Below are positions 2,379 to 24,227 of a DNA stretch of 24,227 nucleotides, piece by piece. The notes below the pieces were generated by a model. That model was not told the DNA's origin and ran no database searches. It saw only the letters and a program-made list of their open reading frames with translations. Origin of the DNA: a virus (lineage: Duplodnaviria > Caudoviricetes); IMG/VR virus record IMGVR_UViG_3300017700_000412, positions 1 to 24,227 of that record. One strand, written 5' to 3'. Each line of letters begins with the position of its first letter. Position 1 is the stretch's first letter. A program made the position numbers and the translations under genes.

Positions 2379-2807
2379 TCAAGCCGACTCGCCATCAACC
2401 ACCCGAACAGCCACCACAACGCACGGCGCCAGCGAATACAACTTGCGCACACGTAGCTCAACAACCTGGCTGTCGTCCACCCACACGATACCGTTGCACG
2501 CATCCTTGACGCCCTTCAGTACGTTGTCCGCGTCGGGCTTCTTCGTGGCGCGCACGGTGCCGGCCGCTGCGGCTGCGCGCTTTGCTTTCGACCAGCTGGA
2601 CGGGATTGGCATGCGCAGTTCCAGCAGGATTTCTATGGGGCTGGCGCTGGGCGGCAGGTGGCGCATAGCGGCCTTGGCATAGCCGGCTACGCGGGCCTCG
2701 TAATCGGCGGTCTTTTTCGGCGTGTAGGCGCGGGCAAAGCCGCCTACCATCGTGACGCGGGCGCGGGCCTTGGCCACAGGGGCGCCGGGTATGGTGAATT
2801 GAATCAT
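2379..2807 (-). CDS. rusA: RusA-family Holliday junction resolvase
   Basis: IPG.PVAK.R.R...YTP.KT..YE, KPDADN..K...DA.NG....DDSQVV catalytic motifs. Confidence 0.9.
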   Translation of the reverse strand: MIQFTIPGAPVAKARARVTMVGGFARAYTPKKTADYEARVAGYAKAAMRHLPPSASPIEILLELRMPIPSSWSKAKRAAAAAGTVRATKKPDADNVLKGVKDACNGIVWVDDSQVVELRVRKLYSLAPCVVVAVRVVDGESA

Positions 2808-3211
2808 GGCATGAGTCCCATCGTTTTTAGAATCTGTTGGCTCTCAGCGCGGGCCAGGTCAAAGTACGTGTCGAGCAGCGAACGCGGCATGCGGCCAGCG
2901 TAGCCACCATCCAGGAAGGCGTGGCAGGCAAAGCACCCGTAGCAACCCTCTTCATCCCGAGCCTTCAGCCCCATGCCCTTGCCGTCCGAGTAGCTGTTGC
3001 TGTGGCACCACACGGTTGTCGCTGGGTCGAAATTGCACACCGGAAGGCGCAGCGTGCACGGCTGACCCTTGGCAGATTTCTGAATCTTGGTCAAGGGCTT
3101 GCGTTTCGCTTTCAGGCGTTTTGGTGCCGAATCCGGCACCTTCTGTTTCGCTTTGAAGCCATTTCGCGCCAGTTGGGACGTGCTGCGTTTCAGTTCGGTG
3201 CGGCGCATCAT
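2804..3211 (-). CDS. DUF1364/YbcO-like Zn-binding nuclease-domain protein
   Basis: SAKGQPCTLRLPVCNFDPATTVWCH...GKGMGLKA.D....GCFACH..LDG. Start overlaps the upstream TGA. Confidence 0.85.
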   Translation of the reverse strand: MMRRTELKRSTSQLARNGFKAKQKVPDSAPKRLKAKRKPLTKIQKSAKGQPCTLRLPVCNFDPATTVWCHSNSYSDGKGMGLKARDEEGCYGCFACHAFLDGGYAGRMPRSLLDTYFDLARAESQQILKTMGLMP

Positions 3212-3837
3212 CACAGGCACCCCCACTGCTCTGCAAATGCGGCGGCAACAACAGCATGGGTTCGGCTACGCTCTTTTTCTCGGTCGGGGCCTGGGCCCAT
3301 CCGCCAGCAGCTTTGATGTATTTTTTCGTAGTCGTCTTCTGTATGCGATGGCACAAGCAAGGGTAGATTTTTCAACCACAGGCAAGCGGCTTTCGATTCC
3401 GGGCACCCGAACATCCAAGGTTGAACTTTCTGTGTGTACTTCCCAAGGCGCGACATGGCCAGCCCGTGCGGCTGCGAATTTTCGATTGCAGAGCGCTTCA
3501 CGTTCGCCTCTTGGAATGCCTTGAAAAATCTGATTCCCTCTTCGAAGTCATCAAGCCTGTTAGGGTAACGTGGGTGCCGGCGCCGCTGCTCAAATGGCAG
3601 TTTGCTGTCCTCTGGATGGGAAAGCCACTGCACGCCCGACAGCGTATTGAAAGTGCAGTAGGGGTGAGCAATCATCAAATCCCACTGCCTGTCGAGAAGC
3701 CGCAGTACATCTCCCTGCACATGCCAGCCGTGTGGCGATTCCGTTGGGCGCAGATCGCAGGAAACTGCCGTGTGCCCACGGCAGGCAAAGGCGTCACGCA
3801 CACGCCCTGAGTACTCGCATGCCACAAGCACCCTCAT
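3211..3837 (-). CDS. Phage DNA cytosine methyltransferase-like protein (short SAM-dependent type)
   Basis: MRVLVACEYSG.VRDAF...GH...SCD, WDLMIAHP.CT, IEN, QPW.FG..E.K..CLWL..LP.L, RS.T....A.A.A.QW. Confidence 0.75.
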   Translation of the reverse strand: MRVLVACEYSGRVRDAFACRGHTAVSCDLRPTESPHGWHVQGDVLRLLDRQWDLMIAHPYCTFNTLSGVQWLSHPEDSKLPFEQRRRHPRYPNRLDDFEEGIRFFKAFQEANVKRSAIENSQPHGLAMSRLGKYTQKVQPWMFGCPESKAACLWLKNLPLLVPSHTEDDYEKIHQSCWRMGPGPDREKERSRTHAVVAAAFAEQWGCL

Positions 3838-5908: not shown

Positions 5909-6711
5909 AGAAGAAAATCAGGGTCCGGGCTTCGTCGTTCGGGACGCTGTTTGACTGCGCGCACCGCTTCGAAGGTGAGCAGCTTCTAAAGCTGTACAGG
6001 GCCAGCAGCCTGCGCGCATGGCTGGGCACGTCGATCCACGCCAGCACGGCCGCATTCGACCAGGCGCGCATCGAAGGCAAGGCGATCACTGCCAACGATG
6101 CGGCCGATGTGTTTGTTTCGTCGTTCTGGAATCCGTCCGAAGAGGTCGATTTTAAGGATGCGAAATTGACGCGCCAGCAGGCGGAACTTATCGGCCTGAA
6201 GCTGCACGCGAAATACTGCGCTGAGATTGCGCCTGCGATGCACTACGAGTCGGTGGAAATGGCGCTGCGTCCGCTGGAAATCGACTGCGGCGGCGATCTT
6301 ACCATCGTGCTGACTGGCACCATGGACCGGGCCCGCGTGGCGCGCATGGCCAGCGGCAAGGTAATCAGCGACGTGAAGACAGGCGGCCGGCTGATTGACC
6401 AGGAAGGAATCGTGACCACGAAGGGCCGCGCCGCGCAGCTGGGAACCTACCAGTTGCTGAGCGAGCACACGGATGGTGAGGAAACCAGCGGCGGCCAGAT
6501 CATCGCCTTGCAGACCACCACAGCCGCCCCTGTCGGGGTGAGCAAGGTATTCGACGCCAAGCGCGTGATGGTGGGCGACGAGAACCAGGAAGGGCTGATT
6601 TCCATGGCAGCCAAAATATTCAAGATCGGGCTTTTCACGCCCAACCCGATGAGCCAGCTTTGCGATAAGAAGTACTGCGCCCGTTGGGGTACTTGTGCTT
6701 ACAAAGGATGA
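5905..6711 (+). CDS. PD-(D/E)XK exonuclease, Cas4/AddB-like with probable Fe-S cluster
   Basis: R.SS.....DC (N-terminal Cys), GT..H, VE..L, GT.D, ISDVKTG, QL..Y, and C-terminal PNP...LC..KYC..W..C. Confidence 0.85.
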   Translation: MKKKIRVRASSFGTLFDCAHRFEGEQLLKLYRASSLRAWLGTSIHASTAAFDQARIEGKAITANDAADVFVSSFWNPSEEVDFKDAKLTRQQAELIGLKLHAKYCAEIAPAMHYESVEMALRPLEIDCGGDLTIVLTGTMDRARVARMASGKVISDVKTGGRLIDQEGIVTTKGRAAQLGTYQLLSEHTDGEETSGGQIIALQTTTAAPVGVSKVFDAKRVMVGDENQEGLISMAAKIFKIGLFTPNPMSQLCDKKYCARWGTCAYKG

Positions 6712-6713
6712 TC

Positions 6714-7205
6714 ATGATTGATGCAATTCTTGCGCTATACGCCCAGGGGAAAACCTGCGCACAAATAGCAAAATTAACTGGCAAGTCAACTATGACTGTT
6801 CATAGGATGATTAAGAAATCAGGTATTGAGATGCGCAAGTATGGTGATTTGCATCGTGGCCGCGAATGGTCCGAAGCTCGCCGCGCACACCACCCAGCAA
6901 AGCCTGTTCGTGCTGTTGATGCTCCGCGTGGGTATGACATATTGACGCAACGGGCCCTTGGGAATAAAAGCGTTTCGAAGCACGGATATGTGGTTATCCG
7001 GACAGGACGTAAGAAACGCCAGTACGAACATATTTTAGTGGCAGAAAAAGCATTGGGGCGCCCTTTGGAAAAGGGGATGGTCGTACACCATATCAACTGC
7101 AACAGACAGGACAACCGGCCGGAAAATTTGCTGGTGTGCAGTACCGGCTACCACCTGGCATTACATGCGCGCATGCGGCGCGATCCATATTGGAAGCAGT
7201 TCTAA
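6714..7205 (+). CDS. Freestanding HNH homing endonuclease with N-terminal HTH
   Basis: GY.......YEH.LVAE..LGR.L....VVHHIN.NR.DNR.ENL. Lower GC than flanks. An alternative start exists at 6708. Confidence 0.9.
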   Translation: MIDAILALYAQGKTCAQIAKLTGKSTMTVHRMIKKSGIEMRKYGDLHRGREWSEARRAHHPAKPVRAVDAPRGYDILTQRALGNKSVSKHGYVVIRTGRKKRQYEHILVAEKALGRPLEKGMVVHHINCNRQDNRPENLLVCSTGYHLALHARMRRDPYWKQF

Positions 7206-8474: not shown

Positions 8475-9191
8475 ATGTCCCTCGACATTTTCCAACTGGT
8501 GAAGGAGCGCTGCTTGCTCTCAAACCTGAACGTGCGCACCGAAATGCACGGCGATGAGCGCGAGCCGGCCGTTGATCTGAATTTCGAATTCAGCGGCGCC
8601 AACAACCTGCTCCTGAAGTTGCACCCGGACCTGCGCGGCGCGTTCTACCGCGCCGACGATACCAAAGACCTGGCCACGCCGGACCACATGCCGCACCTGC
8701 GCTTCCCGCTGCTGGGCACGATTTCCTGGGACTTGGAAATTCCGCGCACCCGGCTGCGCATCCATGACGTGGACGATCCTGCCAATGACGTGGTGCTGGG
8801 CGGCGGCAAAACCAACAAGTTCAAGCTGACCATGCTTGACGGCGGCACGGTGAAGTGGCATTTTCGCTGCCAGTTCTCGAAGCCCGACGAAGACAGCATC
8901 GCCAAGCTCATGCGCGTGCTGAACCAGGCGGTGCCGGTCAGCCTGGAATGCGCCGACGAAGAAGTAAAGCCGGATAACTTCGAGCAGGCAGAGCAGGCCG
9001 GCAAGGCGCCGATGAGCGAAGCACGCGAGAAGGCGGAAAGCCTGTTCGACGCACCGGCCAGCACGCTGGAATTGTCGCCTGATGATGTTGTTGACGCCAC
9101 CTATATCCCGGAGCCTGCAACCAACGTCGAGCCGATCACCAAAGCCAAGCGCGGCGGCCGTAAGGTTGCCGGCGCCCTGGCAATCGAATAA
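8475..9191 (+). CDS. Conserved phage hypothetical protein
   Basis: LNVRTE.HGDE.EPAVDL motif, RBS AAAGG, strongly biased codons. Confidence 0.75.
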   Translation: MSLDIFQLVKERCLLSNLNVRTEMHGDEREPAVDLNFEFSGANNLLLKLHPDLRGAFYRADDTKDLATPDHMPHLRFPLLGTISWDLEIPRTRLRIHDVDDPANDVVLGGGKTNKFKLTMLDGGTVKWHFRCQFSKPDEDSIAKLMRVLNQAVPVSLECADEEVKPDNFEQAEQAGKAPMSEAREKAESLFDAPASTLELSPDDVVDATYIPEPATNVEPITKAKRGGRKVAGALAIE

Positions 9192-9679
9192 TGGGAACGC
9201 CTATTCCCATTTCCGTTAGGTTCTGGCCGAAGGTCGAAAAAACGCCGACTTGCTGGAACTGGACGGCCTTTAAAGACAAGAATGGTTATGGGCAAATCGG
9301 GAGCGGGGATAGGTCAAAACATGAATATTCTCACCGTGTCTCATATGTTCTTGCCTACGGCGAAATACCAAAAGGTATGCATGTGTTGCACAAATGCGAT
9401 AACCCATCATGCGTGCGCCCAGATCATTTGTTTCTAGGCACCCATGTGGACAACATGCAAGATATGACGAAAAAGGGCCGAGGAAAGCAAATTGCGGCGG
9501 GTAGAAAAGGCGAAACAAACGGCAACCACCGCCTGACTACCGATCAAGTAGTGGAGATTAAGAAGGGGCTTGCCAAAGGCGAATCGCAACGAGAAATGGC
9601 AAGGAAATTTGGCGTTTCAAAAACTTTGATTTATTACATCAAGCTCGGAAAAACCTGGGCCCATATAACGGGAGAATGA
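9191..9679 (+). CDS. Freestanding HNH homing endonuclease with C-terminal HTH
   Basis: RFW.KV.K...CW.W......GYG, HR.SY....G.IP.G..VLH.CDNP.CV.P.HLFLGT..DN..D, then LT...V..I...Q...A..FGVS. Low GC. Confidence 0.92.
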   Translation: MGTPIPISVRFWPKVEKTPTCWNWTAFKDKNGYGQIGSGDRSKHEYSHRVSYVLAYGEIPKGMHVLHKCDNPSCVRPDHLFLGTHVDNMQDMTKKGRGKQIAAGRKGETNGNHRLTTDQVVEIKKGLAKGESQREMARKFGVSKTLIYYIKLGKTWAHITGE

Positions 9680-14957: not shown

Positions 14958-15395
14958 ATGAAATCCATCAAAACCACCATCCTGTTTCTGTTCACCTGCC
15001 TGTTCTCCCTGTCGGCCGCTGCTGCTGACCATCCGTGCAGCTTCGTGTCCGACACCGTTACCGGCGACAGCGGCAGCAACAAGGTCTACAACCTCGAAAC
15101 AAAACTGCAAGTGCAATTCGTTCCTGGCTACGTAAAGGTCACGATGCCGAACACCTACACCGTCGAACAGTTCCCCGACGTGACCGGTGCTACGGCCATC
15201 AAGATCAAGGCATCGCAATGCTTCCAGCAGCGCTATGCCCAGGTTACTACGTCGCTGTTCTTCAACGTCACCGGCGATTCGACCACGGTCAACTGTCACA
15301 CGTCGGGCACGGTGGTGGGCGTATCGACCGGCAGCGGCCTGAACTATGCAGACGGTTGCGCGGGTCACGCCAGCGCGAAGGCGAAGGCCAACTGA
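14958..15395 (+). CDS. Secreted beta-rich protein of unknown function (moron)
   Basis: RBS AAGGAG. Sec signal MKSIKTTILFLFTCLFSLSAAAA. Four Cys in the mature part. Own terminator. Confidence 0.85.
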   Translation: MKSIKTTILFLFTCLFSLSAAAADHPCSFVSDTVTGDSGSNKVYNLETKLQVQFVPGYVKVTMPNTYTVEQFPDVTGATAIKIKASQCFQQRYAQVTTSLFFNVTGDSTTVNCHTSGTVVGVSTGSGLNYADGCAGHASAKAKAN

Positions 15396-18159: not shown

Positions 18160-20079
18160 CTAGTCGGCGTTGGTGGTTGAATTGGCCGTGCCTACTGCCC
18201 CAGCTTGCGCTGCGGCCTTCATGACCTCGGCGTACTTTGACGGCGGCACCCCGGCGCGCTGCATAGCCTGGGCCGCCTTGGACGGGTCCTTCAGGATGTC
18301 GGCGAGCAGGTGCCTCATGGTTTCGTCGTTCTTGGTATAGAGGATGTCGCCCACGGTCTTGGCCATGCCGCCAACCGAGCGCAGCGGCGCCAGGTTCTGC
18401 ACCCAGGACGGCAGGCCAGATTCCGCGATCATGTTCGACATGGCCATTTTCTGGACCGTGTCAGAGCCCACGCCGCGCCCTGCATTCTCTGCCGTGGCCT
18501 TCATCTGAGAATCGGATACCACGCCCTGCAACAGCTTCATCTGGTCCGGGTCCATAATTTTCTCAAGTTCAGCATTTTTCAGGCCGGTTACATTTTTTGC
18601 CAACTTGTCGCCGTTGCGTAACGCCTTTGCATAAGAATCGGCGGTAGCCTTGAATGGGACATCAGCACCATCAGCCAAAGAGGGTACGAAGCGCTTATAC
18701 AATTCGGTACCGATATCCATTTGATTCACTGGCTTGTTCATTTCGATGTGGCCAAGCCTCGCCTGCTGATAGCTTTCCGGAAGCTCATTCAACAGTTTGT
18801 TGCGGGTCGCCATAATGGCGGCAGCCTCACGCTTGGCAATGCCCTGCGTAGGGTCTGAAAGCATCGCATCCATGCCCATTTTCAGGGTATGCATGTCCCG
18901 AACAGGAACTGAATCAACTGGTGGCAATTCAAAAGATCCACTCCCGGGTATCTGCTCGCCAGGGACGCTGATTTCTGGCCTTGGTCGTGGCTCTATGCTT
19001 GCGTAAGGGTTGTACCGTTCTGCGGGCCCGAGGACAACAGAGGGCTGTGCTGTACGTGGTGGTACTGGAATCGTCTGCGGATTCATATCTTTTAGACGGG
19101 CTTGATATGGCATGCTCATTTCGTCAGCTAAGGAAAGCGCCCTTTTTTCCGCTTTCTGCATCGATGGCCTTTTCGCCAATTTAGAAAGCGTTGGCGTTAC
19201 TGGCGTACTTTCTTTGAACGCCTCCCCATATAGCCGTTTAGCCTGTTTTTCTACCTGCTCGACTGCTGCGGCCCTATCCTCTGGCGTCTTCGCCACACTG
19301 CGCAGCGCATTGACCAGTGCGGCGCGCTGGCTCTTGTCGATATCACCGAATCCGGCCGGGTCGATGGCGCGGGCAGCGCGCTCGATAGAGGCGATACCGG
19401 CATCGTCCGAAGACTGGCCGGCCGTTGGCAGGAAATCCGGCGTGGCGCCCTGGCGGCTCAGCATGTTGGCCTGTGCCAGGGCTTTGTCGGACGCGGCGCG
19501 GTTCAGGGTGCCGCCGACAATGCGCTGCCGGCCGGCGTCGGTAAAGGGGTCGATCAGGGCGGATTTCGCCACCTTGGCGCCGCGTACCAGAGCAGGGACG
19601 GCCGCACCGGCAACCCCGCCGATGGCCGCATTCTGGCCGCGGCTCTCGTCCGATCCGACAGGCTGAACGGCACCGCTCAGCGCGCCAATGAGCGCACCGC
19701 CGCCGATGGTGTTGGCGCCCGGGATCATAGCCGTAGGCGCGAAGGCGGCGACACCTCCAGCGATATTTCCGCCGATTCCCCAGCCGGTATTCATCAGTGC
19801 CTTGCTGCGGTCCTTCAGGTCATCAACGCTTTCCTGTGTCGGCAGGCCCAGCCGATCGCCCAGTTTGTCGCCTACCACGCCACGGGCAAGCTGGCCGGCG
19901 CCCTGTCCAACATCATAGAAAGCCTTGCCGGCGCCAGCGCCGAATTTTTCAAGGCGCGTCATGTCCGCCGTGGCGTCCGGCACGCTGTTGCGCTGGATGG
20001 CGGCGACAATCTCCGGGTCTGTCATGCTGTCCGGGAACTCGACGCGCCCCTGTCCAGGGACATCGATAATTTTTGGCAT
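18160..20079 (-). CDS. Internal virion / DNA ejection protein
   Basis: EFPD.M....I..AI N-terminal motif, Gly/Ala-rich hydrophobic segments, GSDT..K motif near the C-terminus, and position in the operon. Confidence 0.65.
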   Translation of the reverse strand: MPKIIDVPGQGRVEFPDSMTDPEIVAAIQRNSVPDATADMTRLEKFGAGAGKAFYDVGQGAGQLARGVVGDKLGDRLGLPTQESVDDLKDRSKALMNTGWGIGGNIAGGVAAFAPTAMIPGANTIGGGALIGALSGAVQPVGSDESRGQNAAIGGVAGAAVPALVRGAKVAKSALIDPFTDAGRQRIVGGTLNRAASDKALAQANMLSRQGATPDFLPTAGQSSDDAGIASIERAARAIDPAGFGDIDKSQRAALVNALRSVAKTPEDRAAAVEQVEKQAKRLYGEAFKESTPVTPTLSKLAKRPSMQKAEKRALSLADEMSMPYQARLKDMNPQTIPVPPRTAQPSVVLGPAERYNPYASIEPRPRPEISVPGEQIPGSGSFELPPVDSVPVRDMHTLKMGMDAMLSDPTQGIAKREAAAIMATRNKLLNELPESYQQARLGHIEMNKPVNQMDIGTELYKRFVPSLADGADVPFKATADSYAKALRNGDKLAKNVTGLKNAELEKIMDPDQMKLLQGVVSDSQMKATAENAGRGVGSDTVQKMAMSNMIAESGLPSWVQNLAPLRSVGGMAKTVGDILYTKNDETMRHLLADILKDPSKAAQAMQRAGVPPSKYAEVMKAAAQAGAVGTANSTTNAD

Positions 20080-21653
20080 TATTCGATCCTCCCGGTAGCT
20101 GGGTTGTATTTCCTCACTGCACCAGAATCCTTATTGGCGCTAACAGTTTTCGCCGCAGTGCCGCCCTGCGCATCATCAAGAATTGCCTGATTGATGCGCA
20201 TGATAGTCTTGGCTGCTTCGCGCTTCTGCCCAGCTGGAATAGTTGGGTCTCCCAGATTGCCTGCCGCCTCTTTGTAAAGCGCCATGTCCTTATCGGATGT
20301 TGGCCCCGGCTGTTTTTCAATGCGCGAGGTAAGCCCAGCACCAATAACAGCAAGCTGTGCGGCAGCTTGGGACGATTTGCTGCTGTGGCCAACCATATTC
20401 CCGGCCTTATCGCGCAAGGAACCTACCGTGCTACCGGTGGCAATATCGAGCAACGGCTCTGCCATTTTCAACAGTTCAACCGTTGTCTTTGCCCCTTTGA
20501 TTTTTGCCAGCTCTTCAGGTGCCTGTGCAGCCAACAAGCGGGCTTGCTCGACCGCGTAAGCAGTCCGAACGGCGGATGTTTCTGCCTCTCTTTGGGCATC
20601 GGTTTGCAGCTTAATACCCGGCGTTGTCTGCTGTCCTGGGCCAATCTCGCGCCGGATGGCCGCCAGGTCGCCTGCCTTGCGCGGGTCGCTGTCGGGCCGC
20701 GCCATGATGGCCGCCATTTCCTGCTGAAGGATTTCGCTACGCGGCTGCACGCCTGGCGTTGGCGCCGGCATCTGCGTGCCTGCCGGGAAGCCCTGCGCGC
20801 CCTGTTGCTGGGCCGCTGGTGCTTGTTGCGGCTGTCCGCCTGCCATGGCTGCCGCCTGCTGGCGCGTCATCATCTGCGGGCCTTGTGGCGTGTTCACCGT
20901 GACCATGTCGAACCCGGCTTGCGCGCCGGCTTCCGCTGCCTTGACCTGGCCGGCCTGTTGCGCAATGACTTCGCTTCCAGGAATGGCTGCCATGGTCGGC
21001 TGGCCGTTCGGCCCGAAGCCACCGGCAAAGCCGCTCTTGAAGTCCGGCGCCGTCACCATCGGTTTCATGTCGCCATCGTAAATTGTCGTACCAGGAGTGG
21101 CCTCGGTGCGGCCTTTCTTGAGCGCTTCGGCAAATTTGGCAGCACCCATCTTCTGCGGGTCGATGCCCTGGGCGCGCATGTTCTTCTGTTCGTCGGTTTG
21201 CGTGAGGATGTTCTTCATCAGGTCCGCGCCCAGCGTCGGGTTGAATTCATAGGCCGCCGTGGCCTGCTCCCATCGCCTGTTCATTTCAGGATCGGCAGGC
21301 GCGTCACCAGCCATGGACGCCTGTGGCGTAGCGCCCAGCGTGGCCTGCTCGCTGTTCGGGTTCATCTTTGCCAGAACTGCCGCCATGCGCTCGCGCTTCT
21401 GTGCGCCAATGTCGGCTTGCTTCTCATCGACTTTCTTCTGCCCGTAAGCGCTGGCCGCAATCTGCGCCAGCTGCGAGAACATGCCGAGCTTCCCTTGCGG
21501 GATGGCGCGCCCTGACACAATCTGTGTTTCCTGCGGCGTGGATGCGTTCCGGCGCAAGGCGTCGATCATCGCCTGGCGGCGCTGCAATTCCATCTGCTGG
21601 GCTTCCAGGTCGCCGTTGCCGGTACCGAAGCTGATTGTTTTTACGCTAGGCAT
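20079..21653 (-). CDS. Internal virion / DNA ejection protein
   Basis: LQRRQAM.DAL...QIVSGR N-terminus, G..SDKD...Y..AAG C-terminus, ends KYNPATGRIE. Confidence 0.65.
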   Translation of the reverse strand: MPSVKTISFGTGNGDLEAQQMELQRRQAMIDALRRNASTPQETQIVSGRAIPQGKLGMFSQLAQIAASAYGQKKVDEKQADIGAQKRERMAAVLAKMNPNSEQATLGATPQASMAGDAPADPEMNRRWEQATAAYEFNPTLGADLMKNILTQTDEQKNMRAQGIDPQKMGAAKFAEALKKGRTEATPGTTIYDGDMKPMVTAPDFKSGFAGGFGPNGQPTMAAIPGSEVIAQQAGQVKAAEAGAQAGFDMVTVNTPQGPQMMTRQQAAAMAGGQPQQAPAAQQQGAQGFPAGTQMPAPTPGVQPRSEILQQEMAAIMARPDSDPRKAGDLAAIRREIGPGQQTTPGIKLQTDAQREAETSAVRTAYAVEQARLLAAQAPEELAKIKGAKTTVELLKMAEPLLDIATGSTVGSLRDKAGNMVGHSSKSSQAAAQLAVIGAGLTSRIEKQPGPTSDKDMALYKEAAGNLGDPTIPAGQKREAAKTIMRINQAILDDAQGGTAAKTVSANKDSGAVRKYNPATGRIE

Positions 21654-22371
21654 CGCAAACCCCCATGTGCTGCAAATCGTTCATGATTTCTTGTCGGATC
21701 AGGATCAAGCGCCGCTGCACTTCGGCGCCCTTCTCTGGGTGGTGCTTCTTCAGGTACGGCAGTTTCCACTGGTTCTCTTGCAGGTAGGCCGTGCAGGACC
21801 AGCAGTCCAGCGAGGTGTTCGCGTCGGCGTAGTGCGCCGGCAGCAGGGCGCTACCCTTGATGTAGCCCATCACCTGGGCGTCGGTCCAGCCTTCCAGTGG
21901 GAACCAGTATTCGGCGCCGGCCATCGTGTCGCCGCTCTTGACCGGGCTCTTGTGGTGGTCCGCAGCCTTCTGGCCCCGGATAATCAGCGTGGCGCCGGCC
22001 GCCAATGTCGCTTCGTGCATCGGCTGCATCAGATTGGCGTAGCAGCAGGCCAGGAAGCCCTGTAGCGGCACGCGCTGCTGTTGGGTGAGGAACTGGGTTT
22101 CGCGGTGGTTGCGCACCGGCAGAACGTCAACAGGGTAGCCGTTGGCCTCAACCTGTTCCGGCTGGCGCCCGGCCACTTCCACGAAGTTCGGGCACATGGC
22201 GCGCACCAGTTCCATCTGGGCCAGCGTTTCCGGCAGCGCGGCGCCCGTGTTCATCCACAGAACAGTGATGCGGTGCAGGTGCTCCCGCAGCAGCAGCAGG
22301 CAGCAAATGCTGTCCTTGCCGCCCGAGAACTGAAGCACGATATTGTCATGCCGGTCGAGAGGGCTGCTCAT
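21646..22371 (-). CDS. PAPS/APS reductase family PP-loop protein, probable Fe-S
   Basis: LQFSGGKDS PP-loop, NTG, CC pair, RGQK..D, PL..WT..QV..Y, SLDCWSCT. Confidence 0.88.
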   Translation of the reverse strand: MSSPLDRHDNIVLQFSGGKDSICCLLLLREHLHRITVLWMNTGAALPETLAQMELVRAMCPNFVEVAGRQPEQVEANGYPVDVLPVRNHRETQFLTQQQRVPLQGFLACCYANLMQPMHEATLAAGATLIIRGQKAADHHKSPVKSGDTMAGAEYWFPLEGWTDAQVMGYIKGSALLPAHYADANTSLDCWSCTAYLQENQWKLPYLKKHHPEKGAEVQRRLILIRQEIMNDLQHMGVCDA

Positions 22372-24146
22372 CAGTACGCCGCCGCTGCCGCCGCCGCCAG
22401 GCCGACTAGCCCCTGTTGGTTGCTGTTGTTGGTGGCGATTTCACCGTTGTACTGGGCCAGCCCAGCCTGATACTGCTGGTTGTACAGCCCGGCAATGTCG
22501 GTCGGAGCGACGTTCGACCCAGGCGCATTGCCGAACTGCGGTGCCGTCACCTGGGACCCGCTGCGCAGCGCGTTCAGGATATTGATAGGGTTCTGCTGCG
22601 CCTGGTATGCCTCGTTCAGTTGGTTGCTGCGCATGGCGCTGTCGTTGGCGAACTGCTGCGCGCCGGCCTGGTTGTTGAGCTGGGCGCCAGCCAGTCCCTG
22701 AGAATACAGGTTGCTGGAAACCTGGTTGTTCATGGCGGCATTGCTCTGCGCCTGTCCGAAGCCCTGAGCCTGCGCCGCGTTGTTGGCCTGCATGCCGGCC
22801 AGGTTCTGGCCGAACTGCGTGCTTTGCGCGTTGTTCGCAAAATTGCCTTGCGCCAGATTCTGCCCGAACTGCTGCGCCTGCGCGGCGTTCGCCCGGTCCA
22901 TGCTGGCGCCGCCCTGGGCAAATTGCTGGGCCTGCGCGTCGTTGGCGAAATTCCCCTGCGTGACGCCCTGGCCAAACTGCTGCTGCTGGCCCAGGTTGTT
23001 GAATGCCGCATCGTTGGCGTTCTGCGTGTATTGCTGGCTCTGGGCAGCGTTCCCGGCCAGCATCTGCTGCATGCGCTGGTCGCTAAGCTGGCTCGATACC
23101 GAGTTGTTCAACTGGGCGTTCTGCATGTTCTGCCCGAAGCTCTGGGCCTGGGCCGCGTTTGCGAACTGCCCGTTGTTGAGCGCCTGTCCGTAGGCATTCT
23201 GATTGCTGGCCAGGCCCTGGTTGTACAGTTGCCCCTGGGCGCTCATGCCCTTGTCGAAGCTGTTGTTGAAGGCGTTGTTGTAGTCGAACGTGCGCTGCTG
23301 GCCCAGGTTCTGCATTTCCCGGTTCCACGCATCCGATCCTTGCAGCACGCCCTGTTGGATCAGCTTGTTTTCCATGTCACGCTCACGCTGCTGGTAACTG
23401 GTGTCCAGGTACTGCGATTGCATGTTGTAGGCCGCCTTCTGGGAGTCCTGCATGGTGCCGCGCAGGGCATCGCCACCAACCATGCCGGGGACATTCGCCA
23501 TATCGACCTGGCGCTGCAATTCGCCGCCGCTGACGCCACGCGTGTAATCCTCGGTACCGGTCTTGTTGATGCCGCTCTGGATATTCCCGGCGCTGTTGAT
23601 GCTCGTGCGGATAGGGCCGCCAGCGGTGACACTACCTTGAATCTGGCCGCTGTCTGCCATCTGCCCCTGAATCTGGCCCCCGCTCGCAACTTGCGATTGC
23701 TGGCGGCCGGCACCGTTCATCTGGTTCTGGATTTGGCCGTATGCCGCCCCCGTCTGCATTTGCGGAATACCGGACATGTCCACAGCCGATTGCGGGGGCG
23801 TGTTGCGCACCTGCTGCATGCCGCTCGTGTTGATGGGATTGTTCACCGCATCCTGAACGCGCCCGATTTGCGCCTGGCCCAGGTCGGCCATGCTCTGGCT
23901 GGTAGCGTTGCTCGAATCGAGCAGGCGCTGCTGTGCCGGGTCCAGCGATACAGTGCTGGTCCACTGCCGCGTGCCGTCGCCGTTGTCGGCGCCCTGGGTG
24001 TAGGTCTGCGAGCCCCACGGCGTGACCTGGTTGACGCGGTTCAGGTTCGCTTGCGCGTTGGCCGTGTCGATATTGCCCTGCGTCTGCGCATTGGCAACGA
24101 CAACCGGGTCCGGTGCTTTCGGTGCTGCTGGCGTACTTTTACCCAT
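22371..24146 (-). CDS. Q/N/G-rich ejection (pilot) protein with 10-aa and 18-aa repeats
   Basis: MGKS.P.AP.APDP...A.AQ...N....NRVNQ.TPWG N-terminus. Follows the GNAT gene, as in the P22 gp14-gp7 order. Confidence 0.75.
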   Translation of the reverse strand: MGKSTPAAPKAPDPVVVANAQTQGNIDTANAQANLNRVNQVTPWGSQTYTQGADNGDGTRQWTSTVSLDPAQQRLLDSSNATSQSMADLGQAQIGRVQDAVNNPINTSGMQQVRNTPPQSAVDMSGIPQMQTGAAYGQIQNQMNGAGRQQSQVASGGQIQGQMADSGQIQGSVTAGGPIRTSINSAGNIQSGINKTGTEDYTRGVSGGELQRQVDMANVPGMVGGDALRGTMQDSQKAAYNMQSQYLDTSYQQRERDMENKLIQQGVLQGSDAWNREMQNLGQQRTFDYNNAFNNSFDKGMSAQGQLYNQGLASNQNAYGQALNNGQFANAAQAQSFGQNMQNAQLNNSVSSQLSDQRMQQMLAGNAAQSQQYTQNANDAAFNNLGQQQQFGQGVTQGNFANDAQAQQFAQGGASMDRANAAQAQQFGQNLAQGNFANNAQSTQFGQNLAGMQANNAAQAQGFGQAQSNAAMNNQVSSNLYSQGLAGAQLNNQAGAQQFANDSAMRSNQLNEAYQAQQNPINILNALRSGSQVTAPQFGNAPGSNVAPTDIAGLYNQQYQAGLAQYNGEIATNNSNQQGLVGLAAAAAAAY

Positions 24147-24227
24147 GATTTACCCCTTCGATCCATTTACATTCCTGGCGCAGCATGCCGTAGATAACGC
24201 AGTCGTCCGACTCGAAACCACGGCGCA
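24139..24227 (-). CDS. C-terminal end of a GNAT-fold virion assembly protein (partial)
   Basis: Own translation ...RRGFESDDCVIYGMLRQECKWIEGVNHG*, matching the D..IYGML..EC.W GNAT terminus. Confidence 0.65.
   Translation of the reverse strand, partial: RRGFESDDCVIYGMLRQECKWIEGVNHG

Follow-up and report, generated by a model that had tools for sequence, protein, structure and literature searches.

The locus described here raises the question of what an enzyme of the 3'-phosphoadenosine-5'-phosphosulfate (PAPS) reductase fold does among the virion genes of a phage. The gene lies at 21646..22371 on the minus strand of a 24,227-base virus record (the window, a 24-kb fragment of a partial genome) and codes for a PP-loop protein of 241 amino acids, assigned through matches to PF01507 in Pfam (48 bits) and to phrog_424, an AlphaFold2 (AF2) model and the conservation of its motifs. 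Directly upstream, at 22371..24146 on the minus strand, is the gene of a pilot-type virion protein of 591 amino acids (phrog_6121 'virion structural protein', E 8e-39), which starts with MGK and ends in a free hydrophobic C-terminal tail. The reading that we favour, with a probability of about 0.5, is that the enzyme is a non-packaged maturase that would adenylate and cap the C-terminal carboxylate of this pilot. The narrower proposal, that the pilot tail is the substrate of the enzyme, is well supported by the genomic evidence and is probably correct.

The enzyme and pilot reading frames share 1 nt (TGATG), and the enzyme frame overlaps the downstream open reading frame (ORF) of 524 amino acids by 8 nt. 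The C-terminus of the upstream 591-amino-acid protein is GLVGLAAAAAAAY, and its last 14 codons (22374..22415, minus strand) make up the hydrophobic tail QGLVGLAAAAAAAY, the end of which corresponds to the predicted self-cleavage position in relatives bearing an S74 domain. The enzyme carries SGGKDS at residues 16-21, C109/C110, R132-G133 and C190-x-x-C193 (CC-X79-CxxC) and lacks a C-terminal ECGLH, and no other sulfur-assimilation or dnd gene was detected among the 32 ORFs of this partial record that were scanned against PHROGs. An earlier description of the window made from its letters alone (the sequence-only reading) had listed the coupled gene position, the kept and lost motifs, the lack of sulfur-assimilation and dnd neighbours and the abrupt end of the upstream protein, and all of these were found again. 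It had also called the neighbours of the enzyme ejection proteins; the upstream one does match a virion structural family, but 'ejection' is a label that we infer, and the downstream protein belongs to a family of unknown function.

The conservation of the motifs was counted in 349 full-length homologues (of 361 proteins). The residues of SGGKDS are retained in 91-98% of them, the four cysteines in 99-100% and R132 in 93%, whereas ECG[LIM]H occurs in 0/349 and no more than 56 have any cysteine in the C-terminal 25 residues; in the enzyme, a long C-terminal helix takes the place of the catalytic cysteine. According to the portions available of an earlier study (PMC1175818), no sulfonucleotide reductase can do without its C-terminal cysteine, and the Fe-S cluster is ligated by CC-X~80-CXXC. 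The NCBIfam cut-offs for CysH and adenosine-5'-phosphosulfate (APS) reductases were missed by a wide interval (PRK02090, 38.4 against 154 bits; TIGR02055, 26.4 against 235.3; TIGR00434, 16.9 against 165.1), as were those for CysD (PRK05253, 16.7 against 195 bits) and, more narrowly, the QueC family (PF06508, 13.6 against 22 bits). Since ECGLH is absent, the CysH cut-offs are missed and the C-terminal cysteine is essential in reductases, the enzyme is, judged by its sequence, not a CysH, in agreement with the earlier claim that it is not an auxiliary metabolic gene.

The AF2 model of the enzyme has a mean confidence (predicted local distance difference test, pLDDT) of 96. Its best fold matches are APR-B (Z 15.5; root-mean-square deviation (rmsd) 3.3 over 175 residues), PAPS reductase (14.6), CysD (14.5) and FAD synthase (13.8), Foldseek likewise places sulfonucleotide reductases at the top, and the fold is that of the APS/PAPS reductases (VIA Z 13.6-15.5, rmsd 2.7-3.3 A, 168-182 residues). 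With phmmer no match was found in the PDB, a profile search of the PDB gave reductases only, as weak matches, and a search of the ESM Atlas contributed nothing beyond viral PF01507 clusters. Besides the missing cysteine and the virion operon, what sets the enzyme apart from CysH is its intact loop, which is degenerate in E. coli CysH (SSSFGIQA, together with ECGLH) and intact in the adenylyltransferase CysD (SIGKDS). Adenylating PP-loop ATP pyrophosphatases are marked by a HUP fold with an intact SGGKDS PP-loop, which the enzyme has, and this speaks for the proposed adenylation. CysD (ATP sulfurylase) and FAD synthase perform ATP-dependent adenylyl transfer; the phage enzyme differs from them in its four-cysteine motif, in the lack of a CysN partner among the 32 ORFs scanned in the partial genome and in its proposed substrate, a protein terminus. 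The ATP-binding loop is kept, and, by likeness to the APS reductases, which share the CC-X~80-CxxC motif, the four cysteines are predicted to hold a [4Fe-4S] cluster.

The position of the gene was surveyed in the top 80 viral loci (of 285), 33 genome loci, the top 80 metagenome loci (of 295; the query favoured one clade) and a small number of phage and plasmid records. A profile match above 60 bits was obtained for 195 loci, the window included, and 187 were scorable after 8 with too short an upstream sequence had been dropped. The enzyme lies directly behind an ORF with a hydrophobic Gly/Ala-rich tail in 178 of them (174 scored by a set rule, 10 of these with a methyltransferase between or fused, and 4 by eye), and in 124/132, 75/83 and 30/38 loci after dereplication at 90, 70 and 50%, respectively. 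This arrangement is far beyond chance, is common to pilots that are barely alignable and to enzymes that are ~30-60% identical, and shows that the homologues are not placed at random in their genomes. In the other nine loci the gene is one or two small genes further downstream (3), behind an S74 pilot (L196), in a cluster for a ribosomally synthesized and post-translationally modified peptide (RiPP) (1) or elsewhere (4). The last four (L045, L182, L192 and L284) either precede a terminase gene (in two pieces) or follow genes for a DnaB-like helicase or a PriCT-2 primase. The last residue is F, L, M, Y, I or V in each of the 140 distinct tails scored by the rule, compared to 509 of 1389 background reading-frame ends, a count that is partly circular because the scoring rule is itself based on hydrophobicity; one tail scored by eye (L076) ends in Gln.

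Relatives of the pilot that lack the enzyme mostly run on, at the position of the tail end, into a self-cleaving S74 domain. In the cases compared, the stop of the free tail coincides with the entry of S74 in the relatives (GAGIMAF-SD against STAIMAF-stop), and the spacing of a Ser-Lys dyad, through which S74/ICA domains cleave according to the parts available of PMC8326128, is visible at the pilot/S74 junction. On related pilots, S74 stands at this same junction, but it belongs to a family unrelated to the enzyme and acts in cis by cleavage. Two pilot families were sampled, the first as the best 80 of 424 (6 truncated and 5 with less than 300 nt downstream were dropped) and the second as the best 80 of 161 (8 truncated and 4 short were dropped). 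The enzyme accompanies 0/50 S74 pilots and 9/19 free-tailed pilots in family 1, and 0/19 and 37/49, respectively, in family 2. Combined, it is found at 0/69 S74 pilots against 46/68 free-tailed ones, the latter share being inflated, and the exclusivity not, because pilots with the enzyme served as seeds for both queries. The continuation of such pilots into S74, which the sequence-only reading had mentioned, is real, and the mutual exclusivity that it had proposed to look for is near-complete, with one exception, the locus L196. In a quick tree built from 58 pilot cores after dereplication, at least 18 changes among the three states (enzyme, S74 or neither) were counted, including at least 9 between enzyme and S74 (long branches, no shuffled null). 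The enzyme had no match elsewhere in the genome in 5 S74 records (4 at least 90% complete) or in 5 records with neither module, the latter being incomplete and hence uninformative. The idea that pilots with neither module bear a basic tail instead was rejected as a rule, as it held for 6/8 versus 0/7 distinct tails in family 1 (p 0.007) and for 0/5 in family 2.

Cultured phages show the same exchange. Twelve were chosen among the 60 matches listed of 127 to a GNAT query, Ralstonia, Burkholderia and Brucella phages being left out, and their pilots carry S74 above the Pfam cut-off in 10 cases, a weak match in 1 and another module in 1. The pilots of Mx8 and RHph_I3_18, tblastn relatives of the window pilot, are also S74-bearing, which brings the cultured S74 phages to 13, all without the enzyme, and none of these 14 phages is among the tblastn matches of the enzyme. 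The Bcep22 pilot ends in GAGIMAF-stop and the enzyme is present, whereas those of Parlo and SopranoGao continue from GMGLMAF into S74 and the enzyme is absent. In the Rhizobium phage RHph_TM27A (L288:2417-3505) the pilot runs into a third type of C-terminal module (LASGG...GEFVIP) without Pfam match, possibly another processing domain.

Because the catalytic cysteine is lost, the gene lies behind the tail and S74 stands there in relatives, the enzyme is likely to be an ATP-dependent capper of the pilot tail, and because the last residue is constrained and the tail stops exactly at the S74 junction, it is likely to act on the very C-terminus. We propose that the tail would bind in the groove which, in true reductases, is filled by the C-terminal peptide of the reductase itself and that, before the pilot is packaged, its C-terminal carboxylate would be converted with ATP into an acyl-adenylate, which a nucleophile would resolve, the candidates being an amine, ammonia, sulfide, a lipid or another virion protein. 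A methyltransferase dependent on S-adenosylmethionine (SAM), often fused to the enzyme, may tailor the cap further. The cap would help the tail to insert into the outer membrane during ejection. The C-terminal helices of P22 gp7, including F229, are described as embedded in the outer membrane in the text available of a preprint (bioRxiv 2026.09.03.749273), and by analogy the pilot tail is predicted to penetrate the host membrane when the DNA is injected. The likeness of the window pilot to P22 gp7 (PF25688) is positional and compositional only, as there was no Pfam match and, with a tail-profile probability of 0.1, no detectable homology.

A peptide substrate is also suggested by the RiPP case. 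On the chromosome of Congregibacter variabilis a homologue lies between an NHLP precursor gene and YcaO/ThcOx-type genes. The cluster (L173:3764-9508) is of NHLP/YcaO/ThcOx type and comprises an ABC transporter and two precursors; the phage-type PP-loop gene is flanked by precursor 2 and YcaO. The core of the NHLP precursor after GG is LCCLPLGIAMTGAALIF, and it ends in GIAMTGAALIF, a tail similar to those of the pilots. In a quick tree the homologue is nested among phage enzymes (approximate likelihood ratio test SH-aLRT 94; enclosing clade 96), and its gene is a candidate for a new RiPP tailoring enzyme. A wider idea, which we consider tentative and rather unlikely, is that the membrane-inserting C-termini of many podophage-type pilot proteins need chemical capping by either of two interchangeable routes, the serine ester of S74 or the acyl-adenylate of the enzyme activating the same carbonyl, which a nucleophile other than water (an amine, a lipid or a virion protein) would resolve. 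If so, virion assembly would include a RiPP-like tailoring step, S74 would be recast as a Hedgehog-like transacylase, by analogy, and the recruitment of a phage enzyme by a bacterial RiPP cluster would be accounted for.

The family is large, with 608 homologues of similar length and, in a separate count, 362 clusters at 50% identity (E <= 1e-30). Its cultured members, by tblastn, comprise 43 records, 31 of Ralstonia phages, 10 of Burkholderia phages and 2 others. Among 8000 scored candidates, 95 of the 101 homologues of at least 442 amino acids have methyltransferase matches in Pfam. A CxxCxxCC domain (PF03692) stands N-terminal to the enzyme in other proteins (L069:6620-7744; P0252, P0269, P0304 and P0320), as an alternative to the SAM methyltransferase, and an N-terminal HEAGH metalloprotease-like motif is fused to it in P0125, P0127, P0205, P0207 and P0219, with a weak Peptidase_M41 match for P0205. 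A direct fusion of pilot and enzyme had been suspected from long ORFs and was rejected, as these are fusions with the methyltransferase or the CxxCxxCC domain. One protein, P0335, combines the enzyme with a C-terminal S74 across an SDIRLK junction and may record an insertion between a pilot and its S74; the joining of the two modules counts in favour of the maturase.

Several observations weigh against a capping maturase. The Fisher p of the exclusivity in family 1 rises from 0.0004 to 0.04 and 0.21 on dereplication at 90, 70 and 50%. In L196 an S74 pilot with its Ser-Lys dyad is accompanied by the enzyme, and conversely no enzyme lies within 1.5 kb of 10/19 free-tailed pilots in family 1 and 12/49 in family 2 (22/68 in total). 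P22 gp7 ends in GLLGSLF and has neither enzyme nor S74, and two phages whose pilots are 97% identical differ in having the gene (L001) or not (L097). Because of these free tails without enzyme, of P22 gp7 and of near-identical phages that differ in the gene, a C-terminal cap is not universally required. Four homologues lie at a distance from pilots, and three stand one or two small genes further down the operon. The RiPP evidence comes from one genome, 1/151 in its family, with none in the 150 other genomes of the family and no further RiPP-linked homologue among 80 metagenome loci. Moreover, CysD and FAD synthase, the closest folds in which the PP-loop is intact, adenylate sulfate or phosphate, not carboxylates, and the binding of the tail and the chemistry on it are steps that we infer from sequence and gene order. 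The pilot of L001 ends in Met and that of L097 in Ala.

Two alternatives would keep the enzyme at the ejection machinery, and we regard both as unlikely. It might be a chaperone in trans, which would bind or shield the hydrophobic tail helix, perhaps with ATP turnover, and so take over the folding or solubility function of S74 without leaving a lasting covalent change. S74, at whose junction the enzyme stands, is a known intramolecular chaperone (in the parts available of PMC8326128), and its cleavage by water would leave the same free terminus as the chaperone route. The PP-loop, Arg132 and the four cysteines are however conserved in the manner of a catalytic site, and the methyltransferase fusions and the RiPP-cluster position suit tailoring chemistry better. 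Alternatively, the chemistry or the site might be another: a stable transfer of AMP, a sulfonyl transfer from APS or PAPS, an action on the downstream ejection protein, or on a small molecule that is later attached. This would be consistent with the nearest folds (sulfonucleotide reductases, CysD and FAD synthase), with the location of the gene further down the operon in 3 loci and with the model of one methyltransferase fusion, which resembles the small-molecule enzymes TleD, SpnF, RebM and phosphoethanolamine N-methyltransferase; the substrate was not identifiable from these fold matches of one fusion model. The constraint on the last residue of the pilot, on the other hand, and the fact that the tail stops precisely at the S74 junction indicate the C-terminus.

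Quite improbable is a moron with an unrelated function, which would have entered at the pilot/S74 junction and been inherited there, the loss of S74 being a by-product of its insertion. The resemblance of P0335 to an insertion relic, the presence or absence of the gene in near-identical phages and the four homologues at other positions, of which three lie within or next to replication genes, fit such a history; a passenger would be expected to scatter, whereas the position is kept across barely alignable pilots and divergent enzymes, with repeated swaps. A modification of the packaged DNA, raised in the sequence-only reading, or of the DNA ends, in the manner of DndC/SspD, found little support and is very doubtful: the fold family is the same and SspD (E 2e-5) and BrxP (E 1.5e-4) gave weak profile matches, but no Dnd/Ssp partner was found among the 32 window ORFs scanned, the virion-type neighbours point to a protein substrate, and the S74 swap and the tail constraint would be left unexplained. 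An auxiliary metabolic APS/PAPS reductase, as the family is annotated from its PF01507 and phrog_424 matches and its CC...CxxC motif, and as proposed for phage JC1 in the text available of PMC9144972, is hardly credible given the lost cysteine and a score of 38 bits against a cut-off of 154.

A capping maturase would work like other PP-loop ligases of protein termini, although by the tests above the enzyme is not a member of CysH, CysD, QueC or Dnd/Ssp. Cap9, a QueC-like PP-loop enzyme of the type IV cyclic oligonucleotide-based antiphage signalling system (CBASS), conjugates a group to the terminus of its partner protein according to the available part of a preprint (bioRxiv 2025.04.06.647259), and its fold matches that of the phage enzyme with Z 10.2; it belongs however to the QueC branch and acts on an N-terminus in host defence, whereas the phage enzyme is of the PAPS-reductase branch and is proposed to act on a C-terminus in virion assembly. 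Bcep22 gp73, JC1 gp65 and the cysH of a Ralstonia phage are of the same family as the window enzyme (40-46% identical) and share its gene order, which in Bcep22 is acyltransferase, virion protein gp70, enzyme (gp73) and virion protein gp74. JC1 gp65 is described in the portions available of PMC9144972 as a sulfate-reduction moron, where we read a virion-maturation enzyme; the virion mass spectrometry list given there includes gp64, at the pilot position, and gp67, and includes neither gp65 nor the acetyltransferase gp63, which hints weakly that the enzyme is not packaged.

Among viral organosulfur auxiliary genes, cysH has been described as the most abundant, and a published motif check lists CC...CxxC for CysH (in the available part of bioRxiv 2021.01.05.425418); the large family described here passes this check despite the missing catalytic cysteine. 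No description of a link between the enzyme and the pilot tail or S74 was found in the available text of the Creative Commons-licensed PMC and bioRxiv literature, and this link, in a gene family already known by annotation, appears to be new. If the maturase reading is correct, the DNA-ejection apparatus would undergo a covalent maturation step, carried out by a new peptide C-terminal tailoring enzyme.

The synteny of acyltransferase, pilot and PP-loop gene pointed out by the sequence-only reading was borne out only in part, the pilot-enzyme pair being near-universal and the GNAT acyltransferase gene not being dedicated to it. GNAT precedes 52/52 S74 pilots, 7/8 enzyme pilots and 9/10 pilots with neither module; as it occurs in all three states, it was rejected as a dedicated partner of the enzyme and is a general partner of such pilots. 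Nearly all family 1 pilots are preceded by it; the pilots of this family start with MG(K) or have a leader ending before a GGKGG-like stretch, and it may be that GNAT acylates their N-terminal glycine. In the window the 3' end of the GNAT gene (24139..24227, minus strand), assigned by PHROG and our own profile, is cut by the window edge and overlaps the pilot start; its last 28 residues (24142-24225, minus strand) match phrog_4470 (acyl-CoA N-acyltransferase, E 8e-5) and our own GNAT profile (21 bits).

Downstream of the enzyme, the 524-amino-acid protein (20079..21653, minus strand; phrog_33352, unknown function) is by its position likely to be a second ejection protein, and a protein of 639 amino acids (18160..20079, minus strand), without Pfam or PHROG family, is likely to be a third, by position only. 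An ORF of 145 amino acids at 14958-15395, on the strand opposite to the lysis genes, has a signal-peptide-like N-terminus and no PHROG match and is possibly a moron. The early region of the window contains ordinary phage genes, including three for HNH-type endonucleases (6684-7205, 9191-9679 and 2804-3226) and others of the RecT-like, SbcC-like, RusA and DNA methyltransferase families.

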